Source: an uncultured Planctomycetia bacterium
Lineage (GTDB): Bacteria > Omnitrophota > Gorgyraeia > 2-02-FULL-51-18
Direction: 5' to 3'
DNA: 64,000 nt
Assembly (NCBI GenBank): GCA_964606485.1
Contig: CAZSGP010000004.1
Location: 230,376 to 294,375 of the forward strand
Part shown: one piece after another, positions 10,562-50,704 of the stretch
Position numbering within the stretch: position 1 is the first letter of the stretch
How the letters are laid out: every line of letters starts with the position of its first letter
Position numbers and translations under genes: made by a program
The notes under the pieces: generated by a model
Databases searched by the model: none
Told to the model about the DNA's origin: nothing
Seen by the model: only the letters and a program-made list of their open reading frames with translations

Positions 10562-10607
10562 TCTAATAATTTAATCGATTAATTTATCAAAAGTTAATCG
10601 AACAAAT

Positions 10608-10652
10608 AACCTAGTATGCATCCCGGAAGCATACTAGGTTATCCGGTTTATT
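10608..10652 (+). terminator. Candidate intrinsic terminator after giant ORF1
   Basis: Perfect 12-bp inverted repeat aacctagtatgc / gcatactaggtt (10608-10619 and 10629-10640) with a 9-nt loop, followed by atccggTTTaTT. It lies 47 nt after the TAA stop. Confidence 0.45.
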
Positions 10653-10718
10653 AACTTAAGCCAAATTAAGCAAATTCTTACTTTTGATATGACTAAGTAA
10701 AAATATTTTAAATGACCC

Positions 10719-10747
10719 TTGTAAAGCCCATTTCCGTCGTGTATACT
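10719..10747 (+). promoter_or_regulatory. Candidate sigma70-like promoter for giant ORF2
   Basis: TTGTAA (10719-10724), 17-nt spacer, TATACT (10742-10747), in the AT-rich 269-bp spacer about 85 nt upstream of the TTG start. Confidence 0.35.
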
Positions 10748-13800: not shown

Positions 13801-16800
13801 GTCCAAAACGCTGACGCGGGTTTGCAAACCGAGTACATCAGCGTGAATGGAACGACGCGCGATAGTTATTCCTCGGTGGGCGACCTCGCTCTTAATGATT
13901 ATGTTTTAGAAACGAATTTGACTGCACTTGCGGTTCAACAGCCTCTTCCGCCTACAGGCGAACAAAACGAAGGCGTCTATTCGGTTCGGTTTAGAACATT
14001 GGACGGAGATTTGTTTTCGGAGTGGGTTTCAGTGCCGGCGACTTTTACCGTTGGCGCAGGTTTATTTAACGATACTCCGAAATTGCCGACTCCAAACGCT
14101 ACTATTCTTTCAGATCCTCGAAATGCCGATGGCAACGGAGAGGGCGACCTTCCTTTTAATAGTGCGGATCTAGCGGCGTATCAAAATACGGATGACGTAA
14201 ACATTATTTTTGTAAATTCAGATGCTCCTCAAAATTTAACAACACGCACGTTAAGAACCAAAGTTTCCGGGATTACATCTAACAACAATGTGATTTCAGC
14301 GGATTTGACACAGCTCAGTCCACGCGGCGGCACCGCTGAGGCCGGAACGTGGAAAATTTATCTTCAAATCAATAGCCAAGGCGCCAAAACCGGAATTTTG
14401 GAAACTGGGAAAACATTTGTTGTTTTGCCGGGAAAATTCAGCAATACCCCGCGCCTTACGGCACTTTCAAGCAGTTTTTCTACTTCGGCGGATGATTCTG
14501 ACCGCGACGCACTCGCTCTTTTAGGATTTCTGGTTTCCGAAGCCGCTAATTTTTCAGATACGGCTAATTTAGACATTCGTTGGACACATGTGAACGGCGC
14601 TCAGCGTCAAATGGTCGTGATCGGCGCGAAAAACGCAATCACCGTGAATCACGGATTTTTAGAATCCAATCTGACACTGCTTCCGCTTGTTTCCGGTTCT
14701 CCGGAAACGACGGGCACCTGGACTTTGTCTATGCGGTTAGTGGACCAGGGTCAAACGTCCCCATTTTTAGTGACCGGAAAAATAATCGATGTGGACGTGT
14801 TTACAGACAATCCAAAACTAACCGCCGCACCGGCCGATACCATCACCGAGCTTCGCGATGACGATTCGGACGCGCTTATTCAGACGGTTATTCGCACGAA
14901 TGCAATTGCGGCAAACTCGAGTCTTGAAATTTGGTGGGAAGAAGCCACTAGTCACTCCATAAGACAGCAAATTGTGTCGAGTGCCGCTATCACCGCGAAC
15001 AGTGGTTTTATTAATTCAGATTTAATTCAGATGCCGGTGATTTCGGGCCCCGTAGCAACAATTGGAGATTGGAGCCCCCGTCAGTTTAGAGTGATTTCAG
15101 CGGGTGCGACTTCTCAATTCACCACGTCTTCGGTTCCTACGGTGAATGTGAATAGTTTTAGCGCAAATCCCAAACTGTCTGATTTACCCAGCGGCTCGGT
15201 CGTGTCGATCGATAATCCCGACGAAGACATTGTGGGCGTCGTGAACTTTAATGCCACCACTCTTGTTTCCAATGGCGCGCAAGCGACGGATGATGTTGAA
15301 CTTCAGTTTAGAAGTGTTACTGGCAACGACATTATCAGCCAGTTTAATAAAGTTTCCGATATTCAACGCTTAACCGGCATTCAAGTTGATCTTTCGAGCG
15401 GCACAATTATTTCGGGGTCTGCCGGCATCGGACAGTACCGTCTGTTTATTCGCCGCGTGGGAAGAGGTTCTATTTCTGGATTCAGCGATACGGGTCTTAT
15501 CTTTACCGTGAATCATACGACGGATGTTGCACCTGCCGGTTCACGACTTGGAAGTTTTGCTTTCTGGAAAACCATTTTTTCAGCGCTGACCAGCCTTTCT
15601 ATTTTTTCAGGACTTTCCATCATTGGTTGTGCGTGCGGTTCTTCCGGCGGAGGTTCAAACGCGTCAGGGCCATCTGTTTTCACAGCAAAGAGCATAAAAC
15701 ACAAAGAAGAAGCGAGTATTCTGGCGGGCCAATCGGCTGTCGGACTTTCACCGGATCACGATGCGCTGATTCCGGTTCGCAAAGACGCTGCCGGCCAAAT
15801 GATTTACGAGAATCCTTTTACCGGAATTCTTTACCAAGATTCTGATTTGCAAAATCCTTCAGTGGCTTACGGACCAAGCCAATGGAATAAGGTCTACTCG
15901 AGTCTTCTTACGAATGGCATGGCCCATGAACAATCTTTACGCGGCAATACAAGCGTCATGCTGTATCTCGATCCGAATAATTTTGGCACGACGGCGAATG
16001 ACGACGCCGTATTTAATCAATTTAAACTCGACGTCGCTACACTCGACCAGCAGGAGAATATCAAAACGGCGGTGATGAACTGGGCAGGTCTCTATGCTCA
16101 GGAAAATGGACAATTTTTACTGAATAATCCCACTCAAGCCAACAAAGACATCCTCAAAGCGCGCGTGCGGAAATTTGCGCAAGTTTTAAAAGATGTGGCG
16201 CCGTCAGTTGCGTTCGTCGTGCTTGGCAATGAGAACGCCTATTATGTCGAAGGACCGAACGGCGAGCATGCTTATCAGAACCCGGCACTCTTTTTTGGAG
16301 GCAAGATAGATAACACCATTCGCATGACACCGGCTGACTACTATAAATTTATGGTGGAACTGGCGCAGGAGTTTAAGAGTGTGAATCCGGATGTTCGTCT
16401 CGGGTTTGGACACGGCGTCATCGAGGCCCAGCAGGTCGATCAAATGAGAGCGGCCGGCATTCCGAGCGTGTATGACTTTTTAGCGCTCAATCTTTATCCG
16501 GTGGACGTGATTAATCCCGATGGCAATGACGGTTCCATCAACGGTCTTTTCCAAGGCTATCGCGGGAGCATAGAGTTTGCGACACAACTCAAAATGCCTT
16601 ACATCCTAAAAGAATTCGGCAAATCAAACGCAGTGATCGGCCAAGCAGCACAAGGCAATTTTATTCGCGCGGCAATCTCGGCTTTGCTGGGCGGGTTTGC
16701 CTATCATGGAAAACTTTTTCCTCAGCAAAATGCCGGCAACACCCACGCGCTTTTGGGTGTTTATGTGGTTGAAGCTCTGCGTCAGCGCTGGAAAGATCAA

Positions 16801-19800
16801 GAAATCCGACAAGGCGAGTCGGGCCTAGGTCTCTACGCCAAAAATGTGAGCGGTACGGCTGTGACGTTTACGCCCACTCAAGGGGTAACCTTTTTGGATC
16901 AATCTTATAATGCGGCAATTGCCAACTTCAATGATCCCAAACGTTTACTGGCCGATGGCGCGGTGAGTCAGCCAGGTCTAAACGGTTCCTTTTATTCTTA
17001 CGCAGACGGACGTTTTGATTTGAAAGAAACACAAACCTTAGAAATAAAAGTACCGACGAACCAAGCTGGAAATCAATGTGTGGTTCGTATTTTGCCACCC
17101 AGCGCCAATCCAGAATCGCCCGTCGGCTTAGTAGGCCAAGGAACGGTTTTCACGGTGCCGTCCAATGGCATTATTTCCGTGACCTTGAACTCTTCTGAAC
17201 GAATCGATGCAATTCAGATCAGCGTTCATTCCGGTCAAGCTGCCTGGGGACAAACGTTCCGTGCTGGTAACGGAGCTGTGACGATTATCAATATTACGGG
17301 CGGCGCACGCCTTTCAGTTAATTTCAAGAGTCTTCTCTCGGCCGAAGATAAAACCGCTATTCAATCGGTACTCGATCAGCTCATCAACACACCGCTTAAA
17401 GAAATTTTTGGAGTCGATAAAGCTCTAGCGAAAGAGGCAACGCGCGGGCTTTTTAGTGTACGTGTCATGGATTTATCGATGAAGAGTTTGGAAGACGCCA
17501 TGACACAGAGCCCCGCTCAATTAGAAGCCGACTTACAAAAGTTACTGCCAGAAACGCTTCAAGGTCTCCAATCTCAAAACAATCCGCAAGTGGTTGTGAC
17601 GGGTGAGATGGCACGAGCCTACAGAAAAAAACTGGCGCTCATGCTGGTTTCCGATGCTCAGACCAAAGACATTGTTCGTCGGTTACGAATCTATGCTTAT
17701 TATGACCATCGTGAGGAGGTGCTCGATAGAGTAGAAAGTTATCTGATTAGGGTGGAAAACCTGATCGAAAAAGTTACGGACCTCTTAGATCCCAAACAAA
17801 TGGAAAACGTTTTAGATGTATTAAGAACTATTCAAAGACAATCTGGAGATTCCGGGGAATTTGCTGTGAGCTTAGAGGAGCTAAAGTGGGCGCACGAAAT
17901 TGATCCAGGCTTAAATGAATATGAAAATAATAAGCTTAGAAAATATGACGATTTGAGGAGACGGTATACAGAAGCATTTGTTAGAGCTAGCGACTATATT
18001 TTTTCTAAAATCGAGAGTTTGGAGAGCCTAACAAAGACTCCTCAAAAAGATGCCTCGGAGCTCGTGGGCATTATTAGCGCTAGTGCAGACCCTGTGCTTG
18101 AGGTCATTCAAAATTTAGAATCTCGGGGTCAAAAAGACGACGCGCAAAAATTAAAAGATGCCTTTATCCCATTATTCGAAAAGGCAGCTCGTTTTACCGG
18201 CGCGAGGCTCTCTAGCGATCAGGAAAAAAAGAAAAAATTAGAAGAAGCCGTCGCTAAGTTAAAAGCCGTGAATCACCCGACGGCCCCCGTTCAAAAAACG
18301 GCTTATCAAACGGCGCTGGATCTTGTGAATCAGAAATTTGATCAGTTGATTGTCGATGGAAAGTCGGAGCTAGAGCTTGCTGAAGAAATTATTGGCGGCA
18401 CTCCCGAGAAGCCAGTTTCTATAATGAGCGTCAGTAGCGGCGATTTAGAAAAAGTCGCCGATGCGCTTGGGCGCTCCATGCAACACTTTGGAGCTCTTAA
18501 ATCACTACCGCCTATACCCGCCAACCTTGTGTTAAATGCTGACGAAGCAGAGCGTTTAAAAAATGAAAGCCGTGCTTCAATTTCAGAAGACATGAAGCAA
18601 AATGTCCTAAGATACAAGAAGGCAAATGACGCCGTAAAACTGGAGCAAAAAATACGCGATTTAGTTACGCGTTTAAATCGCTTATCTTACGATTCCAATG
18701 AAGTCGTGAGCGGAGATGTAAAAAAACAAATTTCAATCGTGACCGACGGCGCAAGCCCCGCAGTTTTAAGTGATGCACGCGTTACCGAAGCCCTGGGCAA
18801 GGCGAATGACCGCCTGAGCCAACAAAAGAAATCAGAAACACCGGCAGCCATTGCTAAGAGACGCGTGGATGAAAAAGCTTCCCCGATTCTTACACAGGCT
18901 CTTGCGCATATCGATCGTTGGGAAAAGAGGCTGCAAAACGGAGAGATCACGAAGCTTACAGAAAAAGAGCTTGAGCAAGCTACTCAGGATCTCGAAAGTG
19001 CTCGGAAAATTTTAGAACAAGGCATTGAGATTGGCGATGAAATTGTAAAGGATTTAAGCGTCGATAAAGAGGTCCGTAAAACTTTATTAGAAAATGCTAT
19101 AAAAGAAGTTAGTTCTCAGATCGCAATCGAAAAAGCGAAAGTATATAGCCTGCTCGGTAAATTGAGGCTCAATAAAAAACCTGTTCTCGTCCGCGAGCTC
19201 TCTGACGTGATTGGTCCGGCTCTAGAAACACAATTAAAAGAGGCAAGCACGAATGCAGAACGCGTTCGCGGAAAAATCCAGGAATTAAGACAAAAATTGG
19301 ACGGCGCCAAAGCTGAGTTTCAAAAAATATTAGGCATTGAACAAGATATCGCAAACCAAACGAAACGTGTGAAAGAATTGAGCGATAAGTTAGATCAAAT
19401 TAAAGCCACTGTCGCAAAAACGGTTGGACTATTAACAAATCTTTACCAAAAAAAGCTGGAAGGCAAAAAGACTGCAGAAGGTCCGGATTTAGAGAAGATT
19501 CACGAAAAGGCGATCGAAGATCAAACTTCTACGGAAGCGACTTATGACGTTGCTAAAAAATCTTTAGAAAAATTAGTGGATGACAACCGGTCCCTCAGCA
19601 ATCGTAAAGCCGAACTCGATCTTGCTATCAAGCAGATTCCCACCGAAATTGAAAAATTAAATTTAGAACTTAAAAGATATGAAGATAAGGAAAAAAGTAT
19701 TCAAAAGGAAATTAATGATAAAAATGATATCAAAAAATTAAAAGACGAATTCGGAGCTGCGAAGGCCGAGCTAGCCAAAGCACTGGCCGCGGCGAAAGCG

Positions 19801-22800
19801 TCGGATGACGCCAAAAAAACGGCCGATCAACTCGCTGCTCAAGCCTTGGCTGATAAAACGCGCAGCGAAACACAAGCCAAAGAAATGATTGCTAGAGCCA
19901 AAGAGGATCAAGCCAAATCTAAAGAAGAGGCCGATTTCGCCAAGCAAGAAATGATTAAGGCTAATGACGCCTCGGTTAAGGCTAACCGGCAAGCCGCTGA
20001 AGCGCTAGAAGCTAAAGCGGAGAGCGAAAAATTAGCCAAAGAAATGAACGCAAGACTTGAAGCTGCTGTTGCTACTGCTAACAAAGAAGTAGCGGAAGCT
20101 AAGGCCGCGCAAGCTCAGGCACAAACCGAAGCCGCAAACGCGAGAAACGCGCAAGACCGTGCATTGGCGGCCGCCAAAGCATCCGATGATGCGCGTAAAA
20201 CAGCCGATGTAAAAGCACGCGCCGCCGAAGACGCCAAAAAAGTTTCCGACGAGAAAGCAGCTAAGGCCGTAGCCGCCGAAGAAAAGGCAAAGGCTGATGC
20301 CAAAGAACTCGTTCGTATAGCCAAGCTAGATGAAGCAAAAGCTAAAGAAGAAGCACAAGACGCAAAGAAGGCTAAAGACGCCGCAGAACTTGCCGCTAAA
20401 GCCGAAGGTGACAGCGCTTCTGCAGCACTCGCTGCTAAAAATAAATCTGAATTTGAAGCAGCGGCTGCCATCAAAAAAGCACAAGACGCCGAAGCGGTTG
20501 CTAAAAAAGAAGCTGCTGAAGCGAAAGTCGCACAAGTTAAAGCTGATGATGCGCGCAAAGCCTCGGACAAAAGCGCAAAAGATTCTTTTGATGCAAAACT
20601 CAAAGCGGAAAAGGAATTAGCTTCTGCAAAAGCGGATCAAGCAAAGGCTGATGCCGATAAGACGTCGGCTCTCGCCCAAAAAGAGGCCATTGAAAAACAT
20701 CTATTAGATGCACAGTCGGCTAAAGCCGCAGCTGATAAAACCTTAGCGGAGTATAAGTCCGCCGGCGGTGAACGCATTCGTAAAGCCATAGCTGCTGAAG
20801 CGGCTGCTAAAAAAGAAGCCCAAGATTATTTAGGAGCTAAAATTAAAGCAGAAGCTGAACGTGCCGCCGCAGAAAATGCAAAGACTGAGGCGCAAAAAGC
20901 GGCCGAAGCAGCTCTTGCCGCACAAAAAACAGCGGAAGAGTCAGCACGCGCCGCTCAAGCTGCCAAAAAAACGTCCGACGAGAAAGCCGCTGCTGCTAAA
21001 ACCGCCGAAGAAAAAGCAAAGGCTGATGCCAAAGAACAAATTCATTTAGCAAAACAGAATCAGGCTAAAGCTGAAAAAGAAGCACAAGACGCAAAGACAG
21101 CTAAAGACGCCGCAGAACTTGCTGCTAAAGATGCCGACCAAAAAGCCAAAGATGCTCTTAAAGCTAAGGGTGAAAGCGAAGAACTAGCCAAGAAAATGAA
21201 TGAAAGACTAAAGGCAGCCGAGGCTAACGCAAAGAAAGAAACCGAAGAAGCCGATCAAGCGCGTAAACTTGCGGAGGCAGCAGCGACCCAAGCCAAAGAA
21301 GCAGAGCAGAAAGCACTCGCCGCTGCGAAGGCCGCGGATGAGGCGCGTCAAAAAGCGGAAGCTTTAGCAAACGAGAGTGAAGTTAAGAGAAACCTAGAAG
21401 AGCTAAGAGCGAATGCTAAAGACAAAGCCTCGAAGGAAATTGCAGAGCGTGCCGCCAAAGCCGAAGCGAAACTGGGTGTTGCGGAGAGCAAAGTTTCTGA
21501 CATGGCCGGAAAGTTTTTAGCGCAAATGACCGCTGCCGGTGAAAAATTAGATCTTTTGATGAACTCCGGCGAGATAGACCCCATCGAACTTGCAAAAGCG
21601 GAGACAGAGTTTCAAAGCGCCTCCGCTCTTTACAATGAAATCATGTCTCTTGGAGCAAGACTCGCGGACGATGCAGACAAACTTAAAAAAATTCAGGATG
21701 CCGCGACTAAACTAAAACAAGAGCTCGAAGCGAAGATGAAGGCTGTTCAGGCGAAGAAAGCCGCACAAGACGCCGCAAAGGCCGCTGAAGCTGCAAAAAC
21801 TCCATTTGATAAAGCCATCGTCGCGGTTGGTGCGACTTCCATCGGGCAAGGACAAAGAGCGTATTTTGATCTTGAAAAGCACATCGAGATAGCCGGATAC
21901 CTGCTTTATTTCATTAACGAAAATGAAGCCGTAAAATTCACGGTAAAAGACGGAAAAGTTTTCGCGCAAAAAATGATTGTGGTCAAATCTCAACCCGAAG
22001 ACACCGACGGTGAGCTTGCTCCTGTCGGCGACCCGGTTTTCTTTGGAGAAGAGACGGCTGACCAGCAAGAAAATGAATCTCAAAAATTCTTAGCCGTGAA
22101 GTTTTGGGTCAAGAACGGAAAACTTTATTTTGAGCCGCAAGAAAAAGACGTGGAAGTCGCGGCTTTAGAAAAAACTCATTTCAAGGAATTTGACTTAATT
22201 CAAGCGGATCGCGATTTCAAGGTAGGTGATTTCGTTATCGAGTATCTGCCGGGGCTCAAACAAACCGAAAAAATTATGAGCGGCTCCGATACCAATGACA
22301 ATTTAGACAGCGTTCCAGATTTTGTGGAATGCATCAAGGGTGTTGTGATCGGTGTGACGCCTGAAGGCTTGGTTCACGTCATGAATATCACCCATAAAGA
22401 TTCCAATATGTTTAAGAGTGGTCTAAAAAATCCCAAAACCGATCTTTTCTGGAAATGGAATTCAAAATATCCGCTCACCCCTGATTCAATAGACGCACCC
22501 TTTGCTTCTCAGGCCAACATGGCCCGCACGAGCGAGCTTATGGAAAATATTTTAGGCGTCAGCATCAATGAAATCTTAAGCGGACCGGTGATTGATTTCT
22601 CGCCGCAAGCAAGCCAGGCAAGAATTGAGGCTAAAAAGGCCGCCGCCCAAAAAGCGAAGGAAGAAGCCGAAGCGCAAAAAGCATATCTGAATCGTCCGTT
22701 CACCATGGACGATCTCGACAATAAAAAACCTCCCTTTATAGAATCCGACGGAATCAACACGCTCGCTGAACGTCAAAATGATTATTTTGAATCGGAAACT

Positions 22801-25800
22801 TTTGTTTGGGCTCATCCCCAGAGCGTGGAAGCGGAGAATGCGTTAAAGGCCGCAAAATCCCCGAGCGTTGAAGTGAATGGGTTTGTGTTTTATCTCGCGA
22901 AGGTCAGTTCAAATATTGGAAACGGCGGCGCGGTGGTTAAATTCTTATTGCCCAATTTAAAGCTCACCGGACAGATCGCTTCTTACATTACCGCCCAAGA
23001 TGCACGTCTTTGGAAAGTGAATCCGGCTTATATTGCGGCTCGGCAAAAGAAAACCGACGAAGAGATAAACGCGAAGTTAAAAGCCGCTGGAGCCATAGTT
23101 CCGCTGAATGACAGTGGAGTCTTTGTTCAACCGCTGCCGTCCGCGGATGATTCCGGAGCGATCAATATTAAGTCGGAAGAGCCACAGAAGGTAGTGACAC
23201 CGGTCGACACGAAGCTCGCCGAGTTAAACGCAAAGATTCAAGAAATCCAATCCCGCATTTACGAATCGGACGAACAATTTGCGGCCGATAAAAAACTTGC
23301 GCTCGATAAAGCCGCCGAAGTTTATGCGGCGGGTTCTGAAAGCTACAAAGAAGTGGAAGCCAAGCTTGCCGCCAAGGAAATTCAAATGGGTGATGTCGCG
23401 GCGGCTAATCAGCGCCAGACCGACGCTCTTGTGCGCATGCAGTTGGCTGAAACAAATCTGAAAGCTCTAAAAGCAGAATCTGAGAAAGTCGCCGCCGGCA
23501 TTCCCGCCGATAAAGACCAGGTTGAGGCTGAAGCCATCCAGACACTGAAAGATCAGCTCATTCAAACTTTATTTTCCCAACGTTCAGAAATGTCCGAAAA
23601 ATTAAAAGCTGTTATTGAAAGCGCGCTCAGTTTTGAAATGAAAAAGGCCGTTTTAGTGCGTCTTTCTGAAGAGATGGGTCATCGTGTTACGACTCAAGCC
23701 AATCCCGCTTTGCGTGTGGAGCAGTTTTTAGAACGGGCAAAATTGATTGAGCAATACAAGATTTTAAACATCGATCCACAATATTTCGACTATCTTCTCG
23801 GTCAAGAGTCAGACGCTATTGAGCGGCAACTGGATTGGTTTAAAGATCCTGATGTGGGTAATGGTTTGGTTGCCGTCAAGAAGAGTACTTTCCGTCTTTC
23901 AAAAAGTGAGATTAAGAAAACAGCTGACGAGCGTAAAGAGAGAATCTTAGAAATTATTCCAGCACTGAGTGCGATGAATTCTAATTCGCAAAAAGAAGCT
24001 GAAACGGCCGTTCAAGGTTTAACGGATCAGGATGCTGGGCTAAGCAATGAAGCGGTTGCTAAAAAGATAATCGATGACAAACTTTTTAGTTTGGCGCCAA
24101 AGACTTATGGGTATAAGGAATCCTATATTACAAGCATCATGGCCAATGAGAATGTTCGCTACAATGTTGAAAGTGTAATGAAGTCTCTCAAGGCGGCACT
24201 GGATCTCATTCGTCCTCAAGGGGCCCAGCCGAGTGCAGCCTCTATAAAAGAAGCAGAAGACAGACTTGTGGCTCGTCTGATTGCCGCTGATGAACATTAT
24301 CAAAAAACTATCGCAGACAAAGATTTTGCTCACAAAGAACTCTTAGCCGCTCTCAAAGTCGCCGCTGCACGCAAAGAAGTGAAAGCAAAAGTTGTAAACG
24401 CACTCGAACAAATTCGCTATAAAAAAGCACAAGAAGAAGACGCCGCAAAAGCCGAAGCGCTCAAGAAGGCCGAAGAAGCCGAAGCGCTGAAGAAAGCTGA
24501 AGCGTTGAAGCAGGCCAAAGAAGCGAAAAATGTACCTTTGGAACAGCAAAAAACAGAAAGCGGTGGAGTTGCGGAAGTTCCCGGACCTTCGTTAACAGAT
24601 GCGCAAGGCGCAGCTTTGTTTGGTCCTCAAGCCAAGTTGGAGTCTAATACCGAAAAGTTTAAAGTTAGGGAAGAATCAATTTATGCGCAGCTGATAAAAA
24701 TTTTCGAAACAGATACTTCGTTCAATGAGGGAAAATTTAAAGAAGGAATCTGGACTGAATTTAAAACAGGTGTAGCTTTGAAAAAGACCAACAGTTCGAA
24801 AGCTAAAGCCTATGATGAGCTTGAATCTCTTATGAAGAGTAAAAAAATAAAATTGTTAGCGGATTTTGAAGAGTGGGTGGGGAAAAATTTTCCGAAAGAA
24901 GAACAAAAATCCAATCTAGAAAAAGACCAAGCTGAGCAGAAGGAACCCGAGCTGATTAACTTGCCGAAAAGCATTTCCGGTTCTTTCGCGATCGATAAAA
25001 TAGACAAGTCTGGAGTTGAAATTGCATTTCAAACAGACGGAAATACAATCCAACTCTCAAGTGTTGTCGGAGACGTCCCCGACAGGACCTTAACGTTAAA
25101 TTCAAAAAATGGATTTAAAATCACTATCGGTAAAAACCAAAACTCTGGTTCTCATTTTCAAACGGAAGATGTTTTTTATATTAACGCTGAGCAAGCAGCA
25201 ATTGAATTGGTAAAAGATGCGGACGGGTATAAATGGGTTTTGATCAATCTCAGCGATAAGGTAGCTATTTATATCAATGGCCTCACTTTGATTGCCGGAA
25301 AAGAGAGCGAGGGTATCTCCGATAGAATAGTGCTTGCCGACAAAATGAAACCAAAGGTAGTGACGATATCTAAAAAAGCCGAGAGCTTGCAAGCGCAACC
25401 ACAAGAAATCGAAGCCGAAGACACCGGGTACTCCAGTTCTTCAATCGAGGAAGAGGCTTACCCAGAAGGCCTTTTGAGCATAGAGTTGATAGATGCCATT
25501 GAAAGAGTGCTTCTTAAAGGGGTAATGGTTAAAGGGGTTTCCGACGATCAGGTGCTGGGGCTTTCTGACGAAGAAAAAGCAAAAAAATTAAAAGAAATTG
25601 TTAAAACGCAAAAAGGTGAGCTGGCGGAAATCAAAAAGAAAATGGCCGAGATCCGGTCCGCCATCGAAAAAGGCCAAACCGTTACTCTGACTCATTCAAT
25701 CAAGCCCTCTGCCTTGTCGGTCGAAAATTTTGAGTCCGCAATTCAAATATCTCAAATTGATGCAGCCGCAGAACTCGAAGAACAGCTTAAAGTCCAACAA

Positions 25801-28800
25801 ACGAAAGCCGCCAAAGAACAACAAGAAGCCCTCGACGCTCAAGCGGATCTTAAAAAACAAATCGAGGAACTCAACGCTGCTCTCGCCGAAGAAAAAGAAA
25901 AAAGAAAAGAAGCGGAACTTGCAGCCCAAGAGGCCATTGAGGCTCGCAAAAAAGCGGAAGATGAGCTCGCCCAATTTAAAAACGAGACCAATGCAAAATT
26001 TAAAGAATTAACGGCCGCAGTCGCTGCCGCGCAAAAAATGGCCGAAGAAGCCAAGGTCCAGGCCGACGCTGCACTCAAAGAATTAAAATCCGCTCAAGCG
26101 AATGTGAAAAAAGAAGAGGCTGACGTCGAAGTGGCGAAAGCAAAGGCGGCAAAAGAAGTCGCGGAAGCACAAGCTGCGAAGGCCCTAGAAGCACAGGTGC
26201 AAAAGGAAGTCGAAAAGGTTCAGGACAATAAGCCGACTCCTGAACACAAATTTCAAAGCTTAAAAGTATTTTACAATAAAAAATTTCAAAATGCCGAGGC
26301 TAGCCAGCGTTTAGCGGCTTGGGAAAATTTTGAGGAAGATTTCAATAAACACAACACCGACCAATGGCCCTTTAAGCTCTCACCCGCTGATTTGTTGGCT
26401 GAGCTGCTTGCTGGAATTGACCATATAAAAGATCCCCAGGAATTTCAAGAGTTATACCAAAAATATTTAAAATCCTCGACTTCGCCTGAGATTATGTTTA
26501 GTGAATCTGGGGATGACAGTGGAAGCTTCGCCGCATTTATGGGATCTGATTCTGACGAAATGGCGAAGCCTGATTTTAGCGCATCTGCTTCAGGCGGCAT
26601 TCCGATGGATGATTTGCTTGCGCCTCAATCGGCAGTTATTCCCGCGGCACCCGCAACCGGTCCGCCGGCAGATGACTTACCTGCCGATATGGATTCCGAT
26701 GATGATTTGATTGTCGCTCAAGATGTGCCGCAAGAGCCAGCGCCCGATGATGTGATTAACGCCGTGGATGCGGATGAAATTCCCACTTTTGGAATTGGAA
26801 CGGTTCGCACGCATGGTTATGCAGACCCCGCCAAGCGCCCAACCGAAGAATCCATCGAAGACGCCGTATGGGCCGATTCTAAGATCGGCGCATTTTTAGT
26901 CGCGGATGGCATGGGCGGCGGCGGAAATGGCGCGACTTACAGCCGCATTGCCAAAGAAAAAATTTCCGCGTATTTAAAAATGAATTCAGTTCCGGGACTT
27001 TCCAAAGAAGAAGTTCAAAAAATTCTTCATGATGCGGTCATGCTCGCTCAAGAAAAAGTCCGCGAGGCTATTGATGCCCTGGGCTTGCCGGCGGATGCCA
27101 CTAAAGATATGGGAACGACGATATCGGTCGGGGTGATCTGGAAAGACGAAACCACCGGAAAAAATTGGCTTCTATCTGCGAATGTAGGAGATAGCCGCAT
27201 TTATATTCGTAAAGCGGATGGCTCTTTAGTCAAAGTGACCATTGATGACACCAAACTTGTCGATATGGTCGACAAGGGGTTCATGACGCCTGAAGAGGCG
27301 GAAGCCGTGGGTCCTAAGGAAGCTATCAATAATGAAATTTATAAGTTTCTCGGGAAACCCGATTTAGCACTTGATGACCTGCGCAAAGTCGAGCCGGTAG
27401 AAATCAAAGCCGGAGAAATTGCGTTTGCGGTGTCGGACGGCATCGTTGATAATCTTCAAAATCCAAATATTGCCGAGCGTAAGCACTTGGCTCAAATTGC
27501 GGCCGAAACACACGACTCTACTCAAGATTTTCTCGAAGCCTTAGCAAACGAAGCAAAAACTTTCGCGCTTTCAGATCCAAACGGCCCGAACACCAAGCCT
27601 GATGATATTTCTGCGGCGGCGGTCGAGGTGCCAGTAACGGCTACTCCTGTGGTGGAAGAGGCAACCGAAGCGCCCGCGATGGTTTTAGACAAATGGCAAC
27701 GCGCGCGGGTTTACGCGGCTTCCGCATTCATCGTCTCAAGCATTATTTCGACAATCGCTTTAATTTTTGCGACACCGGCTTTCATCGCGTGGCTTGCGTT
27801 CCCGTTTGTCAGCGCGGGGCTTTTTGGAATTATCGGTTACAAATGGGCGAGTACGGTTGATCCACCTCACGCTCAAGTTATTCCGGTCAAAGCTCTTTCC
27901 AAAATTGCGGATGAGCTGGGCGCCGCTTCACCGGAAGGGGCCTATCGAAATACGCTTAAGAAAATGATTTTAGAAGGACAAAAGCGTCTTAGTGCTCTGG
28001 TCCTTACTTCCCAACAAATCGCCGAGCAAAAAACCGACAAAGAAAAAGATCTGAATGTGGCTAAGTGGAAATGGGCGATTGGAATAACGCTCTTAACCAC
28101 CGCTGGAGGGTTAGCGGTATTTGCGCTGACGAGCGGCCTCGGAGTTTTAGGAGCGATCGCCGCATTGGGTGCCGGATCGATTCTCACCATTTTATTTTTT
28201 AATTTTATCCTTAATAAATTCATCTTCGCTGAAGCCGTTTTCGCATGGAAAAAAGCCGTCGAACGTGAAGGCGGAGTCCGCAAAATTGTTTTCAAGGAAA
28301 GCTTCATCGAGTCCTTTAAAGGTTTTATCCATCTCACCGTCGGACTGCCTTATCATTTATTCCAAGGATTCATCTTGGGAGTTTTCGAAGCCAAAATTAA
28401 AGCATATTGGTTCCCACGTTTGGCGTATCTTGTTCAACGCGTTTATCCCGGTCAAGGACGCACGACGCAAACAGATTATTTGGAATATTTGGCCGAATAC
28501 TACGCGCCGTATTTAGGCAAAATCGAAACCTCCTCGATTGCAATATACGAAGCCGCGAATTATTCCGAAGAACGCACGAAGGCGATTGACCGGGAATTTT
28601 TATTAACGAATGCATGGGAAGTTTCTCTACTGGGTGGCGTCAAAGATGCGTTTACCAAGCGTTCCATTGTATTCATTGCTGGCGCTTTGGGTAGCCCAAT
28701 TCTTTCGTTTATCGGAATTGGAACGGTGGCTTTGGGTGGTGCGCCGGTTGGACTAGTAGTGACGTTTGCGATTGTTATCGTAAGTCGGACACTCACGACG

Positions 28801-31800
28801 CGCTCGGCTTTAAAGGAAATTAGCTGGAAAGCTCAGAACGACCCTGAATTTAGCCGCGGAAAAGCCATCGCCAAAAGAATTTTGACGGATGTTGTGATTG
28901 TTGCTGCTTTTGCGGGCCTATTTGCCTTGGGCGTTACCAATAGCGCCGAAAATATCGCAAGCCTTGGAGGCGATCCTTCCACCGTTGATTTTAATTTCCT
29001 AGACCGCGGTTGGAATGTGCCTTTACCCGCCATCGGTCCGATGCACGAGCAGTCGCTTCACTTCACATTCCGAGCCATCGGTGGAGCTATGGCCACGCTG
29101 TTTGTTCTGGGCTTAAAAGATATGTGGTCGAGTGTCAGAACATATATTTATTCGGATCTCAACGAACAAATGATTCGCTACGTGTTTAAAGACGAGCGTA
29201 ATGATTACAAAGCTACCTTAGACGCCTTAAATCAAGAAGTAAAACCATCCGAGCGCAAACCATTTGTGCTGAACTCATTCGACCTTGAAAATATCTCAAA
29301 AATCATGGAAAAACTGACAGTTTCTCAACAGGCGTCGATGATTGGTTTTGTGGAAACCATGTTGTCTTCACCGAAGGTTGCTAAAAAGCTAGGCGTCAGC
29401 GGTTATCAAAAAGAACTTATTTTAAAAGCCATGTCGAACATGAAAGAGGGTTTTGATGCCGATGTGCTGACAGCGTCCTCCGTGAATTACGAACAAGCCG
29501 TCGAGGACTTTTTAGCGGGAGCGGTGACATCAAATCTTTACGCCGGAGCGTTTTTTGAGCTTTTATTCAGCAGCACATTTTGGTGGAAGATCCTAGCCGG
29601 AGTCCCGGGAATGTGGTTTGTACAAACTGAAATCAATTTAATCGTGGGTCTTGCGAAGGCCACGCATTTCACGCCTTTAGTCAGCGTTGTGAAATTGATT
29701 GAAGGAGATGAAGACTATAAGCAAGAAATTAAGCAGAGAATTGACAGTCATCAAGCAGTGGGTGCGTGGGAACACTGGGTTGCCGACGGTTGGATGGGCA
29801 TTGCCCAGCACGTGGTAGCCGTTATCCCAAATCCATTTATCTCTAACGTCAAGCTTGGTCCGTCAGATTCTGACAAAGAAAACGCCAAGATTGCAGAAAC
29901 GCTTCGCATTGAAAATGAAGCAAACGAAAAAATGGCCAAAGAAGCCGCCGCCCGCAAAGCCGCCGAAGACGCCGCCCGCGCGAAAGCCGAGCGCGAAAGA
30001 GCGGCTGAACTCGAAGCCAAGCGCGTTGCTGCTGAAGCGGAAAAAGCGAAGGCTCAGGCGGAAGCGGATGAAGCCGCGCGGAAATTCCGCGATGCGCAAA
30101 ACGAAGCCGATCGTTTAAGAAAAGCAGGAATTGAAGCCGAGCGCGTCCGTCGTGAACAAATAGCCGCTCTTGAAGTTGCGAACCGTGAAGCGGAGCTCGC
30201 GCGCCGTGAGGCGGATCGAATCGCGCGTGCCAAAGCCATCAAAGAAGCCGATGCCAAAGCCAAGGCCAGCGCTGAAGCTCTGCGCAAGGCTCAGGAAAAA
30301 TTACAGCGGAACAAAGAAGACGTTCAAATGCTTCAAGCCAAGCGTCAAGAGAGCATGGAAGCCTCTCAGCGGTTTGAAAGAGAATTTGCCCGAAAAGAAT
30401 TTCGTTCGATTAAAGATTTTGACGATGTGGTTCAAAGTCTTCGCGTTGAAGCCATGAGACTCGACAAGAAGAATCCGGGAGCCTTGGCGCGCTTTGATCA
30501 AAAGGTTCAGGAAAAGAGAGCCCAGTTTAGCCCCGCATCCAAGGAAGCTGTCAAAGAGTCCGTGAAAGAACCCGTGAAAGAACCTGTCAAAGAGGCTCCG
30601 AAGGTTGAAGACAAAGCCGCTTTAGTTCTTGAACAAGTTGCGGTCTTGAAAAACGAGGCCAAAGCGCTGGAAGCTAAGAAGGATTTGAATAGTCTCCAAG
30701 CTACGCGCGATCCCTACAAGCAAGCGCTCGAACAGATCAATCAGGCGTTAGAAACTTATCCGGACGATCAACGCTTGAAAGATGCTCGGTCGGAGATCAA
30801 AGACTCTTCTTCGCGTGTGTTTGCCAAAGTTAGCGAAGTCTTGATTTCGCAGAACCCGAAGGATGACAACTTAAAAACGATCGCGCGCGAGACTTATCCC
30901 GAGCTGATTAAAAACGCTCAGGAGTCGGTTTTCACGCTGGCGCTTGAAAAAATACTCAACGATAGCCAGGCACCGCATGTCGCGTTTGAAGTCGCCAAGG
31001 CGCGTGTAGAATTTTTAGAAGCAAAAGCGAAAGACAGTGAGACTTCGCTTACGGACATTCCGGTTCTTGCTCAAGAATTAATCCATGTTTTAGATTGGAT
31101 CGATGCCAAAATTCCAGAAGCGGTGCGCGAAGATTACACTACAGTCCAAAAAGACAAATGGAAAAATAAAGAAGAAAAAACACCCGAGCCGAAAGCAGAG
31201 CCTCAGAAAGAAGAAGTTCCTGGCGCAACGGATTTGAAGGTGGGCTTGCGGCAAATTAAAGATGCCATCGCTCCCGCGAAAGATACTCAAGATGCGGAAG
31301 AGACATTTATTTGCCCGCGGTGTAATCATGACGTTTCAGATAAGGAAGATCATTGTCCTGCTTGCGGTTTAAAATTTGAGCCAGCACCCGCTGTCAAAGA
31401 GACGCCAAAAGCAGAAGTTCCGCCTCCCGCTAAAGCGGAAACGAAGCCCGTTATCGAGCCGGGTCCAACAGATTACTTTGATGTACGTATTTTTACGCCT
31501 TCGGCCACTAACCCGAATTACGTGGTTCAGCTCTTGCATTCGTATGAGCAGATTATTCAAGAGACAAAAAATTCCGACAACGTCCGGGTGATCGATCTAA
31601 AGAGTTTTGACGCGGCAACCAAGAAATTAAAAGTGAATGGCCAGGAAACCGAAGTCACTTTTCAACAAGTCAAATCCGACCCGAGCGTTTCGTTTGGAGG
31701 ACAAATAGTAACCCCGATCGAAGATCCGCAGTCACCAGATTTAACCCATGTCAAAATTGGAGATAAAACGTACAAAATTGTAAAAGGTGTCCGCGCGCTT

Positions 31801-37800: not shown

Positions 37801-40800
37801 AATCCTGATCTTCAGCCTGTTTTCAAAGAAAGAGCGCTGGCCAACGACAAAGCACTGGTCGAAGGATCCGCCATTGTTCACCGCGCAACCGATGCTCGTT
37901 ATGAAGCGCTAGATTTTGACCCGTCTGCATTTGGACAGGTTCAAAAAGAAATTCAGGAAAAGTTGTCGAGCCTTGCGGATCAGATTTCCAAGGAAACAGA
38001 CGCTAGACTGAAATTTTATTTGATCAAACAGTATGTCGATGTCAAAGAACACAATTTGTACCAGGCCGAAGACGGCAGTTTCCGCGGCGTGATTTATGGA
38101 ACGAAGCAGGCTGATGAGACTGTGGAGAAAGTCCAGACGGCGCTTGAAGTCAGGCTAGGCCTTATCTCGGGAGCATTGGACGGCATGCCGCCGGACCAGG
38201 TCAGCGCTCTTTTTGAGGAAATAACCGGAAGCGTTGTAACTCCTATTTTCGGGTTAAACGGCGAGTTTGAGAGAGATGATCATGGAAAACTATGGGTCAA
38301 GGTGAGCGATCCAAAGCATAACCGTTTTCCGAGAGTCGATGTGTATGATTTGAACGGCAATCTAGAGGCGTCCTACATAGGCGGATCATTAAAAGTTGAT
38401 GTTGATGGAAACCATGTTTTAAATGTAAGGGCCGAGCGGGTCATAAGGGTTATAAAAACAAACACTTCTACAGGCGAGCCGTCAGAAGCTCAAATTTTCA
38501 CTCAAGAGGCCTCGGGCAATGAAATCTTAACGGGAGTTATGATTTTCTCGAAAGATGATCAAGGGTATTCGGTTGTCTCGGAAAAAACATTTCTAAGAAA
38601 TCCTGATGGACAAATAGTAACTACTGATGCAAAGGTTTTAGACGCCACGAATTATTCAAATGCCCGGTTCGTAACCAATACAAAAACGTATGACCCATCG
38701 AACGGGCGTGTTTTGGAGACGCTCACTCAGGACCCGCAGGGGAACAGACGGATTGCAGTATCTTATTATGATAATCCATCTGACCCAGACCAAGAGACGT
38801 CATCGCTGTTATATGCCGTAGACGACAAAGACAACCGGATCATGATCGGTCGAACGGAATCCCAGGGTTATGACGCGGATGGAAACCATCGGGTCAAGGT
38901 TTATACCATTCAAAATGCTAATTCCGTAACGGAAAAAATCGAAGTATATGACGCGCTTGGCCGTCTATTAAGACAAGAAATTCCAAGCGACCAGTTTAAT
39001 AAAACATTAATAAAAATTAATTACAAAGATGGTCAGGTCATCGGAAGTGAGACCTATTCAGAAGATAAAAATGGTGTAAAAACACTCCGATCTAAATCTC
39101 GCTTTGAGGGATATGACTCTAATGGAAACCTAGTTTCAATAGTGAGTGTATTTTACAAGGACAACGAAAAACCTATTTATGAAAAAGAGGAAGTTTATAA
39201 TTCATTCGGAGAACTTTTAAGTGAAACAGTTTCTTCAAACGAAGGAAAAATTATTACCGAAATTGATCGGGCAAATGGGGCGACGGGTCTCGAAGTGGGG
39301 CGTAGCACATTTTTTGAGCATCGCGACGAATTATTGCTTCCAGTGCGGCTGTTAATTTCTAGCGGCAAGCTTGTTAGTTTTAGCGACGGTTTATTCGTAG
39401 TAGAAGTGGAAGATTTTGCATCACACTCACGTCATCAAGACCGATATGACTTATCCGGTCGTCTTATAGAGAGCTATCTGAGAGATGAGGATGGAAGAAT
39501 TTTTAGAAAAACTATTATTGAATATGATTCGGATGGCGAAGAGTTTAAACGACTAACATATATTGCGCCTGACGGAGTTGTAACCAATCCTAAGCCGCTT
39601 TCAACGAGCCAAGTTTTGGCAGTGGATGAGTTCGGCGTTAAAACAGTGCAGGTAATAGAAGATAAAGATACTTATATCGTCCGCTTTGATCATATAGGCC
39701 GCCTAATTGAAAAGCAATTTGGAGGGCTCACCATCAAATTTAACCTAGACGTTATTGGTGGGGTTAGCTCGGTTAGCACCTTTTACGCTGGGGAATTAAT
39801 TAAAGAAGGAAGAACCACCGGATATATTTCTGATAAAGGGTTCTTTGTCCCCATAAATGAGTATTCCAAATTTATTAATGGCGGGGGAGCAATTGTTGGT
39901 GTTCGCACAGAAATCGAAGACAAAATTAAGGCCAAACAATGGCTAGAAGATTATGATTTTCTAGGCAATCAAATCCGTTCCATTACACTTCGTGAAAATG
40001 GCAGAGAAGTTGAAGTTACCGAAACAAAATATGATTCCAATTCGCGTCTTCCGATAGGCGGTGAAACTAATCTGTTTGATTGGGACAAGGATGCCAACAA
40101 CTTCACCGGAGTTTCAAAAAAATCATTAGCAGTTTCAAACTTACGAGTTGATGCCGAAGGGCGACGCGTATCTGTTGTAAAGAATCTCGAGCTTGATCTG
40201 GTTTGGGAAGAAATTCAAGATGGTCTGGGAAGGCGTCTGGCTAAATTTGGTGGAACGTTCGATGATTCTACCGGCGTCCTTCGTCGTACTTATGTCGAGA
40301 TTTCAGACTTTGAAGGTCTTACCGGGTCTGCCGGAGTTGCAAAAGAATCTATCTCCTATGAGTACACTGAAGGTAAAGACCTTGAATGGCACAAAGCAAA
40401 TGCCCTTAAAATTTCACGCAGTATTTTGACAAAGTTTGATCAGACCAAAGGAATCTTTGAATCTACGATTGAGTATTATGGAAAAGGCGGTTTAATCGTA
40501 GATGTTCTGTATGAAGTGCGTAACGCCGACGGACTTTTGTTGTATGCCGTAACCGGAAAGATGGAAGAAGGGCGTTTTGCTCCGCTTCATTTAATGAAAT
40601 ATTTTTATGATCGTGAGGATTTAAAAGCAGTAGGCATGGCTTCCGGTTCGGCTATTTATCAATATGCTGATGGTCTTTCTTACGAGGATTATCAAAGCCG
40701 TGGAGATCTTTTAGGGGAAACCTCTAAAGTCGTCGGAAATCCTATAAAAGTTTCCGGAGAACAAGGCGTTCAAATCACGATTGAAATTACCCGCTATTAC

Positions 40801-43800
40801 AAAAATGCGCCGGTCGAAAAATCAACCCAAGTCAAGGATGCCTATGGACGGGTCATAAGAGAAATAAAAGACAACGTTTTACAGGTCCATTTGTACGTTG
40901 ATCCGAAATTTAAAGCTCATGGAATTGCATCGGAGTCTATTAGCTATGCCTGGGATCCAAAAACGCAAAGAGTTTTATTCGACTCTTCAACCGGGAAGCC
41001 GATGGAATTGAAAAAATCAAGAGTGCTATGGAGTTTTGAAGAATATTTAGAAAAAGGTGTCATCAAATACGAAACATTAGATTTGATCAGCAAAGATGTC
41101 GAATGGGAAACCAAATTCCGCAACGGTCTGCTGGATCGCAAGTGGGCCATAGACCGGACTTCTCATAAACCATTCAACATGACTTTATTCAGGTACACCA
41201 CCGGAGAAAAAGGAAACGCATATCTCGGGATTGCTGATGACGTATATACCTACCAAACGAATGAATTTGGCGAAGCACTTGATGATGCCGAAAAGGTTAT
41301 CTCCGAGGAACCCGGAAAAGCACCTCTAGATGCGAAAGGTGTTCCAATCGGTTATTTTGAATACACACGGGTAGTTGAAGTTAAAAACGTGGCGGAAGAT
41401 AAAATTAATCCGCTGCACGTTGTCTATCAGGTTGCCGTAAAAAATGACGGACTAAATCTATTCGAACAATTTAAGGAAGTTAAGAACTTTAAGGGTGAAC
41501 TTTTAGCTAGAACCGTGGGACATAAATCTAAGGGGGATGCTGAGTTTACTCCCGAAAAATCCACTTTCTTTTTAAGAAACCCTGAAAGATTTGGACAATA
41601 TACAATCGCGGACCAAGCGGCAACCTACCAACATGATCCGACTCAAACTGTAACTGATTCTGACAAGGGCGTTTCTAAGTTTTCTGCCTACCTTACGCGC
41701 TTGTACTCGGAAGGAAAGGAGCTCCCTGAAATTGTCAAAGAGGCAGACTTTAATGGAATTATGGAGGACCGCTCTAGATTAAAAATAATTGTTAGAAGCC
41801 AGGGGGATCTAGCATTTGAGGCGCTATCCGGAGAAGTAAGGGTTGTCGCTGAGATGCTGAAAAAAGATCTGTTAACGAATGATGGTTGCCTTGTTTATCA
41901 AAAGGAAGTTCTGAAATACTTGAATGGTAAAGCAAAGCCAGTATCTGATTACATCGATATTGTTCTTCAAGGACGCTGGAAAAAATCTGTCCACATCCAA
42001 AGCAACTCTTATTCGGAAGTCCAATATGATGCTAAGAAAAATGTGGTTAGCGGTCATCGTGAAGAGGGGTTAAAAGTTATAGATCTTCATAGAAAGCAAG
42101 GTGAAAAGGGTCACCAGAAAATTAATCCGTATATGCCTAATCCGAAGATAGAGGATTGGTTAGTTTTCGACGTGGACTATAAAGATCAAAATGGCCACCT
42201 GCTCTTTAAGGGAGAGAAGTGGGTCGACGTTTACGGAAAGACCGTAGTGGATATCCAGTTCAAAGGCGATTACGTAAAAATTAAAGGGTCTGACGGAACT
42301 GAAGTCTTGGACGAAGCCCAGTACAAACAAAAACAAGCCTTGGCCGTGTATCTTTCCGATCAAGATCCTGTTGATTATGATTTTTCTCTCAACGAGGCAA
42401 ATCCATCAGCCGAACTTAAAGTGGAGAAGGACTACTCGCACAGCGATTTTATCTTTGTTTATCTATCGGGATCCGATCTTTTAAAGTCGTCTCCTGACAA
42501 AAATCCCGTTGTTAAGTTTGAAGTTAAAAGCGGCGAGGGTTCCAATCAAAAGACCGTGACGGTTGGCTCATCGGGGCAGCCATTTTGGATTCCGATCAGC
42601 GAAAACACACTGGACTATCAAAGCCGCTCGGTTCAGATGGTTGCGGAATCAAACGATCTCAACAAGCAGTTTATCTACGCTGTACCCGTCCAGCTTTTGG
42701 CTCGTCAGGGCGTGGACATTACGGATGTGCGTGGAATTACGGTTCGTTTATCGGCACCACTTGAGCCGTCACAGAACATTCGCCTTAGCCGTCTTTATAC
42801 GGCTGGTCAGAATGAAGACAAGTCCCGGCTAGTGACTTATACGCCTAGCGGTTCTAAGGACTCCTTCTTGGCAGTTGGGGAACTGACGGGTCAAAAGGCA
42901 TTTTTTGATAAAAAGACCGAAAATGACTACGGGCGCCGTATTAATATTTTTGGAGCAGACAACCGTCTGGTTGCTTCCATCGTAGACTATAAACATAAAG
43001 ATGAAGACAGCAATCTTTATACAGAGCTTCGCTCACTGACATTGTATGATCCTAGCGGAACTCACCCCATTGGCGGTGTCCTTCTAGATCCCCAAGGGTT
43101 GCCCATTGCCGGAACATTCCGGAAAATTGCAGTGGAATATAAGGGCAAAGAAAACGAATACCTACTGGTTCATGAATTAAACCCCGCGTCTGGCGAAGCA
43201 GAAACAACGGCTTACCAAGTCAATTCTTTAAATGCTCAGAAACCGCTGTGGCGCAAAGTGGGCGGCTACGTGTTTCTCCCGCGGATGGATGCGTCGGATC
43301 CAACATCCAAAAAAGCAAATTTACACTACAACACTTTGTTCCAAGTAGCCCATCGTGAGATCTTAGACCGATTCGGAGTCTCTTGGCTTTCTTATGAGTG
43401 GAAGGCTGGCGAGGGAAACATCGTCAGCTTAGATCCAAGAGATATTAGCGCGGAAAAGGCTATCGCCAACTCCAAGACGACCGAAGCGGACTTGAAGGCC
43501 GCTTTGGAAAGAGTCGATTTGGATTTAGTGCGTGAAGTCAGCGGGGAATATATGGCAAAGAGAATCGATAAACATGATGCCTTATCTTGGCCCGGATGGA
43601 TAAGCATTATCGCCGCAACTGTGATTTTATCGTGGCCGTACTGGATTCTCCGTTATAGCCGTAGAAAAGCAGCGGAATGGAAGCAGGAGATTGAAAAGAG
43701 AAAAGAAAAGGCCAAAAACGCGGATTATTTGTTTGATGTGAATAGCCCAGAATATATTCAAGCGCTTAAGCGTATGAACGAGAACGTCTTTAAAGTCTCC

Positions 43801-50634: not shown

Positions 50635-50656
50635 AACTTTACCCTTCCCGGTTCAA

Positions 50657-50690
50657 CCTGCCTGCCGGCAGGGAGCGCGGGGTTTTTTTT
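50657..50690 (+). terminator. Candidate intrinsic terminator of giant ORF2
   Basis: cctgcc(tgcc)ggcagg inverted repeat at 50657-50672, GC-rich gagcgcgggg, then T8 at 50683-50690. It lies 23 nt after the TAA stop. Confidence 0.55.
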
Positions 50691-50698: not shown

Positions 50699-50704
50699 AG
50701 ACGG

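Follow-up and report, generated by a model that had tools for sequence, protein, structure and literature searches.

What is a protein phosphatase doing in the middle of a giant bacterial protein? In the 64,000-nucleotide stretch of contig CAZSGP010000004.1 analyzed here (the window), a single open reading frame (ORF) with a TTG start runs from 10831 to 50634 on the forward strand and encodes 13,267 amino acids (aa). The first-pass annotation of this DNA had recognized in it a PP2C Ser/Thr phosphatase domain followed immediately by a polytopic membrane module, and had proposed that the two form a unit that signals across the membrane. The phosphatase domain and the module do lie in one 13-kaa protein. 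However, the domain looks like a lineage-specific accessory add-on rather than an integral part of the module, judging from relatives that carry the same scaffold without it. The parts of the protein on which this argument turns are the following:

10831-50634, forward strand: giant ORF, 13,267 aa (ORF reading, self-BLAST)
10873-10962, forward strand: signal-peptide-like N-terminus, aa 15-44 (read from the sequence)
10963-13107, forward strand: conserved N-domain, aa 45-759 (alignment with relatives L005, L007, and P0151)
13108-27600, forward strand: lineage-specific spacer, aa ~760-5590, PP2C included (comparison with relatives)
26503-26796, forward strand: acidic Pro-rich low-complexity linker that precedes the PP2C domain, aa 5225-5322 (sequence)
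26803-27630, forward strand: predicted PPM/PP2C domain, aa 5325-5600 (Pfam, phmmer, alignment, AlphaFold2, Foldseek)
27631-27708, forward strand: juxtamembrane linker, 26 aa, ending in ...DKWQRAR before the first transmembrane (TM) helix, TM1 (sequence)
27709-29835, forward strand: conserved membrane module, aa 5627-6335 (hydropathy, phmmer, alignment)

In Pfam scans of a 300-aa segment, the phosphatase domain matched PF13672 (PP2C_2) at E=1.7e-8 and 34.7 bits against a cutoff of 24 (27.1 bits inside a 5,000-aa piece) and PF00481 (PP2C) at 25.4 bits against a cutoff of 20.3; both scores exceed the curated cutoffs. The SpoIIE model (PF07228) reached 24 bits, just short of its cutoff of 25. Searches of PDB sequences with phmmer returned tPphA of Thermosynechococcus elongatus (~1e-15) and PstP (9e-11). 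An AlphaFold2 model built from an alignment of 28 sequences had a mean predicted local distance difference test score (pLDDT) of 76.8, with a core above 90, and a predicted template-modeling score (pTM) of 0.79; Foldseek matched this model best to tPphA (E~1e-13, target-normalized TM-score 0.82-0.83) and next to PstP, MspP, PppA, and Stp1. By score, metal ligands, and modeled fold, aa 5325-5600 is therefore assigned as a bacterial-type PPM (PP2C) Ser/Thr phosphatase domain, as first annotated. Its nearest homologs, P0001-P0008, are Ktedonobacteria-like proteins of ~800 aa with 32-35% identity. When PP2C and module were used together as the query, a word-indexed protein database yielded only generic PP2C matches over 19-23% of the query and no self-match. 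A candidate second PP2C domain at aa ~8758-8875 (BLAST E=0.022) was dropped, as Pfam gives it no support.

Whether this domain is active depends on which residues it has kept. PPM phosphatases hold three essential metals by means of five Asp residues (Su & Forchhammer, PMC3375153). In the 28-sequence alignment, D5344, D5359 (with G5360), D5454, D5536, and D5591 all fall in invariant columns and correspond to D18, D34, D119, D193, and D231 of tPphA; none has been replaced. The DGMGG glycines, DMGTT, and GDSR are also intact, and the flap region is partly kept (N.IY..LG). Thus, the earlier statement that the PPM motif set is complete stands for the metal ligands but fails for four positions that are conserved in at least 90% of homologs: NED has become IED (I5342), DGMGGH has become DGMGGG (G5364), DHS has become DDT, and DN has become DD (D5592). 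The His of DGMGGH, which is the general acid in human PP2Calpha, is one of these. The phosphate-binding Arg is not found in register either: a K5335-R5336 pair lies 1-3 residues away from the consensus position, and a 12-aa insertion precedes the last PPM motif. On the one hand, the substitution of His by Gly, the three other changes, and the low Pfam score (34.7 bits) make it possible that activity is reduced or lost. On the other hand, membership of the bacterial PPMs does not strictly depend on either the His or the Arg: in tPphA, a water bound to the third metal (M3) is presumed to donate the proton, and the phosphate-binding Arg is not universal in the family (PMC3375153). Because all five Asp residues are kept, an M3 water could serve as donor, and the Arg is dispensable elsewhere, the domain is probably active, perhaps slowly so.

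Only ~25 residues separate the end of the PP2C domain from TM1, and PP2C, linker, and TM1 run on from one another within about 80 nucleotides (nt). Hydropathy and a five-sequence alignment resolve the membrane module (aa 5627-6290, 27709-29700, with conservation extending to aa ~6335, position 29835) into five predicted helical hairpins, i.e., 10 TM helices, which agrees with the 8-10 helices noted at first, plus one conserved amphipathic "PYHLF" helix:

27709-27840, forward strand: hairpin TM1-2 (hydropathy, alignment)
28072-28212, forward strand: hairpin TM3-4 (hydropathy, alignment)
28333-28398, forward strand: conserved GLPYHLFxGF helix (alignment)
28663-28785, forward strand: hairpin TM6-7 (hydropathy, alignment)
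28879-28935 and 29074-29127, forward strand: hairpin of TM8 with TM9 (hydropathy, alignment)
29557-29700, forward strand: hairpin TM10-11 (hydropathy, alignment)

In all five sequences the partners of a hairpin are joined by turns of 0-4 residues, except for one loop of 34-59 residues with 0-2 Lys or Arg (K/R). Conserved motifs include GLPYHLFxGF...KIxAYWFP, SLLGG..F.KKR, LHFTxR...ATLFVLGLKD, GxPGMWFVQxEI, and IEGD. When aa 5604-6340 were compared exhaustively by phmmer with 1.84 billion representative proteins, no more than six matched: P0148 (E=3e-65), P0149 (E=2e-49), P0150 (E=1e-12), P0151 (E=2e-9), and two that are short or marginal. The two named homologs are both proteins from Omnitrophota metagenome-assembled genomes, and none of the four main homologs has a PP2C or any other Pfam domain. 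The module had no match among PDB sequences, and its profile had none in the word-indexed protein database, where the candidate list was probably filled by hydrophobic matches. Conservation of this kind identifies the module as a genuine but rare, undescribed domain. An AlphaFold2 model of it from the five-sequence alignment (pLDDT 41.8) was rejected for fold search and topology.

The relatives of the giant protein tell us whether the fusion is conserved. At locus L005, two ORFs, one matching giant aa 1-221 at 62% identity and the other aa 224-636 at 57%, are followed by P0148, whose residues 130-752 match giant aa 5590-6332. In P0151 (locus L006; 3,246 aa), the N-domain occupies aa 36-508 and the module starts at aa ~590. 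Locus L007, which came from a metagenome scan, carries an ORF of giant size (at least 5,295 aa). It matches giant aa 15-759 at 54% identity over the signal peptide and N-domain, and a ~300-aa K/R-rich linker leads from the N-domain to the module; a DGMGG-type motif occurs nowhere in this ORF. The partial record P0149 has 219 aa upstream of the module and no PP2C there. In L005, L006/P0151, and L007 alike, an N-domain of ~600-750 aa is thus joined to the module by 70-300 aa that contain no PP2C, whereas the window protein has ~4,800 aa between the two, with PP2C as the last element. Because these three relatives share it, we take signal peptide, N-domain, short linker, and module, followed by a variable tail, to be the conserved scaffold, one that is itself undescribed. 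The PP2C domain looks like an accreted accessory domain, since the scaffold relatives lack it and it lies within the linker that has grown here. The proposed coupling of PP2C and module in a transmembrane signaling unit therefore loses its footing: the module is conserved alone in other Omnitrophota proteins, and PP2C sits in a spacer specific to the window protein. It also weighs against a functional phosphatase that no ortholog with PP2C was found among these relatives, and hence there is no sign of purifying selection on the domain. In L005 the N-domain is split by a frameshift within conserved sequence (~2036-2042), and the module frame is open upstream of the called start (~3300-3355); L005 is either a decaying giant gene or affected by assembly errors.

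The conserved N-terminal part begins with a signal-peptide-like segment (aa 15-44: KKFRSNFGIGLR-SISALLVLTFVF-QEFSHA/QGG), also present in L005, L007, and P0151, that reads as Sec-type, with a positive n-region, an h-region of 12-13 residues, and SHA/QGG. The N-domain lies at 10963-13107 in the window, at 1362-3355 in L005, at ~5960-8170 in L007, and at aa 36-508 in P0151, and the giant's version is 54-62% identical to those of L005 and L007 and about 24% identical to that of P0151. Its motifs IQDxHS...G.Q, EGA, and TGG[FY]H[ST]E are invariant in the four proteins, and these His and Glu residues suggest a metal-dependent enzyme; no Pfam relative and no PDB sequence match was found. The Cys pair C393/C420 is kept in three of the four.

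On which side of the membrane, then, does the phosphatase lie? Across the two faces of the module, K/R residues total about 62 on the face that carries the N-terminal flank of TM1 and 2 on the short-loop face; counted by hand over short loops and 15-aa flanks alone, the figures were about 35 and 2. The pattern holds in all five aligned homologs, where the short hairpin loops have 0-2 K/R and the TM1 N-flank, the other loops, and the flanks are K/R-rich. The TM1 N-flank shares its face with a 31-aa loop that carries 8 K/R. The opening hydrophobic run, 44 residues without a charge, has the same construction as the later hairpins. In P0001-P0008 the PP2C domain follows a TM helix and RRAQRHR, which points to the cytoplasm, and a zinc ribbon past the module was counted in favor of the same side. 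By the positive-inside rule, we lean toward placing the PP2C domain on the cytoplasmic, K/R-rich face, with a little better than even confidence. Several features speak against this placement. The conserved Sec-type signal peptide implies export; P0151 and L007 have no hydrophobic segment between N-domain and TM1, so that by homology the TM1 N-flank, and hence PP2C, could be extracytoplasmic; and the giant itself has just two hydrophobic segments, both borderline (aa 804-826 and 1582-1602) and even in number, between its signal peptide and PP2C. P0150 was dropped as evidence for a module that opens its protein with an inside N-terminus, because its record is flagged partial. West-Roberts et al. 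2023 met the same difficulty with other giants: they report that most domains of Omnitrophota giants are predicted to be extracellular, and note that such predictions for cytoplasmic-type enzymes look unreliable. The whole small family shares the conflict between signal peptide and positive-inside rule, and so it lends itself to a compact test of which side the enzymes of giant proteins occupy.

Taken as a whole, these observations are best explained by an accreted, active membrane phosphatase at the cytoplasmic face of a giant protein, an account to which we give about an even chance. The linker between N-domain and module would have expanded to ~4,800 aa, with PP2C acquired as its last element. 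The domain would bind Mn2+/Mg2+ and be catalytically active. Its proton would come from the water on metal 3, as has been proposed for tPphA, so that loss of the His could be tolerated. From the cytoplasmic side of the module, where K/R residues are dense, the domain would act as a membrane-localized phosphatase on phospho-Ser/Thr of the giant's own cytoplasmic segments or of partners, in the manner of PstP or Stp. It counts against this account that no substrate was identified and that Pfam scans found no kinase or FHA domain within the window.

The strongest competitor, which we consider less probable, is that the signal peptide carries the N-terminal part of ~5,600 aa across the inner membrane, where the exported PP2C acts, for example, on the host or prey of an episymbiotic or predatory Omnitrophota bacterium or has no substrate at all. 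Export would account for the retention of the signal peptide in the giant, L005, L007, and P0151, for the Cys pair of the N-domain, whose conservation is compatible with a disulfide, and for the uninterrupted passage from N-domain to TM1 in P0151 and L007; it fits the extracellular predictions of West-Roberts et al. 2023, and secreted PPM-fold effectors do exist (SidD is among the Foldseek matches). However, it would have to disregard a very strong charge bias and leave the 31-aa loop with its 8 K/R in the periplasm, the TM1-TM2 run resembles the other hairpins, PPMs normally counter ATP-dependent kinases inside cells, and West-Roberts et al. 2023 themselves doubt such extracellular predictions for cytoplasmic-type enzymes. 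A bolder variant, and a long shot in our estimation, has the exported 5.6-kaa part bear an active PP2C while the K/R-flanked hairpins insert from outside, e.g., into a host or prey membrane. If true, the giant would present or deliver a phosphatase to another cell, which would make it an extracytoplasmic PPM effector in an attachment or predation protein, and delivery would also explain why cytoplasmic-type enzymes are predicted outside in Omnitrophota giants.

Two further explanations dispense with a working fusion. The domain might be a degenerating or non-catalytic PPM fold caught during spacer expansion, at most a structural or binding module (a pseudophosphatase). None of the relatives examined keeps PP2C, the His, N, H/S, and N of four near-invariant motifs are lost, the Pfam score is low, the last motif is preceded by the 12-aa insertion, and the window offers no partner kinase. 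Even so, we regard this as rather unlikely: neutral decay would not be expected to spare five Asp residues, the DGMGG glycines, DMGTT, and GDSR, the model core is confident (pLDDT >90), and domains in Omnitrophota giants are generally highly divergent yet retained. That the fusion is an artifact of assembly or annotation, i.e., a chimeric contig or read-through of separate genes, is hardly credible. The giant protein has no self-match in the searched protein database, and the same region is broken into several frames in L005. However, 13,267 stop-free codons cannot arise by chance, GC content and GC skew are uniform over the ORF, PP2C, linker, and TM1 adjoin one another within about 80 nt, in the syntenic relative L002 the same place is taken by a giant gene encoding at least 6,124 aa, and the flanking genes are identical in an independent Logan assembly.

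The remainder of the giant protein is largely devoid of recognizable domains. Along the ORF, GC content stays between 0.42 and 0.51 and GC skew is evenly positive; self-BLAST found no internal repeats, and the three hydrophobic clusters are mutually unrelated. There are only 13 Cys residues in total. Pfam scans of the whole protein gave only PP2C, a weak OEP match, RHS_repeat, and sub-threshold zinc ribbons, with no SecA_DEAD, C39 peptidase, or dockerin/TSP3. The features downstream of the module are the following:

29878-30420, forward strand: charged A/E/K/R-rich helical, coiled-coil-like tract, aa 6350-6530 (sequence)
31312-31365, forward strand: CxxC...CxxC zinc ribbon, aa 6828-6845 (sub-threshold Pfam matches)
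38338-39960, forward strand: divergent YD/RHS repeat region, aa ~9170-9710 (motif count, PF05593)
43579-47703, forward strand: further hydrophobic clusters, aa 10917-10940, 11182-11354, and 11897-12291 (hydropathy)

A tract similar to the coiled-coil-like one follows the module in P0149 as well. The zinc ribbon (CPRC...CPAC) is isolated, ~500 aa past the module, and holds 4 of the 13 Cys residues; it gave only sub-threshold matches (14-17.6 bits) to several zinc-ribbon Pfam families. The C-terminal clusters, three in number with ~12-14 hydrophobic helices, are unrelated in sequence to the module at aa 5627-6335 and have no Pfam match. The YD/RHS region lies ~3,600 aa downstream of PP2C. The description of the protein as RHS/YD-containing is weakly borne out: the YD..G motif occurs 8 times against 1.3 expected, with seven of the eight within aa 9172-9708 (e.g., VYDALGRLL, RYDLSGRLIE, and RFDHIGRLIE), and PF05593 (RHS_repeat) passed its cutoff (24.8 bits against 22, E=2.9e-5) only when aa 9100-9850 were scanned alone; the initial scan in 5,000-aa pieces had missed it. 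At E<0.01, Pfam gave neither an RHS core nor a toxin family; the C-terminal self-cleavage motif itself was not searched for.

The spacer between N-domain and module (aa ~760-5590) contains coiled-coil-like tracts, two lipobox-like segments, the acidic linker, and PP2C. The lipobox-like segments, at 13219-13314 (aa 797-828: GSRFASLGKWFHAAVLIVSGFIAG-C818-VGGSS) and 15541-15657 (aa 1571-1609: GSRLGSFAFWKTIFSALTSLSIFSGLSIIG-C1600-AC-GSSGGGS), both resemble lipoprotein signals, with a positive n-region, an h-region, xxGC, and a Gly/Ser linker, and both are absent from L007. Each may be what is left of a fused lipoprotein gene, a TM helix, or a site of processing. Internal translation starts ahead of them were rejected, as no convincing start codon or ribosome-binding site lies nearby.

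On this piece of bacterial chromosome, the giant gene is preceded by an ORF of 3,507 aa (38-10561) with no Cys, no hydrophobic segment, and no Pfam domain; it resembles neither the giant protein nor the genes that come before the L007 giant. The 269-nt spacer that separates the two carries an imperfect inverted repeat (10579-10669; 45-nt arms, 78% complementary, with a 14-bp perfect core) and a sigma-70-like TTGTAA-17-TATACT (10719-10747), and the giant gene may have its own promoter. The giant ORF (10831-50634) is followed by genes for TPR and VWA proteins, a GT4 glycosyltransferase, and hemD/E/H/Y, and then for an acyl-CoA dehydrogenase and a response regulator. The block of TPR, VWA, and GT4 before hemDEHY (50540-55589) is conserved: L002 (1399-9182) keeps it and has ExbB/ExbD in addition between the giant gene and the TPR gene, a hint that an envelope-associated system goes with the giant gene. 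HemE of the window is matched exactly on an NCBI contig and in a Logan assembly; its next relatives are only 64% identical (named ones ~54-60%, mostly Candidatus Omnitrophica/Omnitrophota), and L002, from Logan SRR33452767, is one of those at 64%. L002 has the same gene order, and its giant gene is cut by the contig end; the C-terminus of that giant has no similarity to the window giant. Scans of GTDB representative genomes with the PP2C plus module segment and then with HemE returned no relatives. From the HemE and module homologs and these empty scans, the host lineage is a poorly sampled one, probably within Omnitrophota.

How does this protein compare with known systems? The phosphatases tPphA, PstP, MspP, Stp1, and PppA have the same catalytic fold and the same five metal-binding Asp residues, and tPphA is the best match in both sequence and structure. 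However, identity to tPphA-type PPMs is only about 22% in the structural alignment, and the giant's domain differs from them in its altered His, NED, and DHS, its displaced Arg, its 12-aa insertion, and its position 5,300 aa into a 13-kaa protein. In PstP of M. tuberculosis, as in the giant, the PPM domain is N-terminal to a membrane segment and connected to it by a short juxtamembrane linker, and the two may have similar roles. PstP has one TM helix and a small extracellular domain in about 500 aa, and its gene adjoins those of the kinases PknA/PknB, whereas the phosphatase domain of the giant is followed by an unrelated module of ten helices, is flanked by thousands of residues on either side, and has no kinase in its neighborhood. 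SpoIIE of Bacillus also combines a PPM with about 10 TM helices in one polypeptide. In SpoIIE the TM block comes first and the phosphatase last; the giant has them in the opposite order, the TM blocks share no sequence similarity, and the best matches are of the Stp/tPphA type. Given the reversed order and a PF07228 score of 24 bits, below its cutoff of 25, the giant does not belong to the SpoIIE type by its sequence. The closest PP2C sequences, P0001-P0008, are also membrane-anchored, and some have zinc ribbons; however, their layout is ectodomain, single TM helix, linker, and C-terminal PP2C, and the likeness is limited to the PP2C domain.

In overall construction, the Omnitrophota giants (West-Roberts et al. 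2023; Nielsen & Lui 2026) share with the window giant a likely common phylum, a size of >10 kaa, a signal peptide, many TM helices, mostly dark sequence dotted with highly divergent enzyme domains, and the puzzle of cytoplasmic-type enzymes whose predicted place is outside. Embedded enzyme and signaling domains alongside many TM helices are documented for them, and most are sequence singletons; PP2C is not among the domains named in the portions of these papers that were searched. The window giant differs from others in lacking internal repeats and, by Pfam, SecA_DEAD, C39 peptidase, and dockerin domains, and the absence of these three domains separates it from the "Archaeovorin" and dockerin types. 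The initial impression that a PP2C domain in such a protein has no described precedent agrees with the portion of the literature searched, where we found none for any bacterial giant protein. On the other hand, embedded enzymes are routine in Omnitrophota giants, and thus the context is less exceptional than first thought. The more reusable results are the scaffold of N-domain and module and the topology paradox. The relatives also show how a giant can grow, with a conserved core and a spacer ranging from <300 to ~4,800 residues that gathers ordinary enzyme domains. If active, the domain described here would be the first noted PPM phosphatase built into a bacterial giant protein, and Ser/Thr dephosphorylation would join the signaling domains already seen in Omnitrophota giants.

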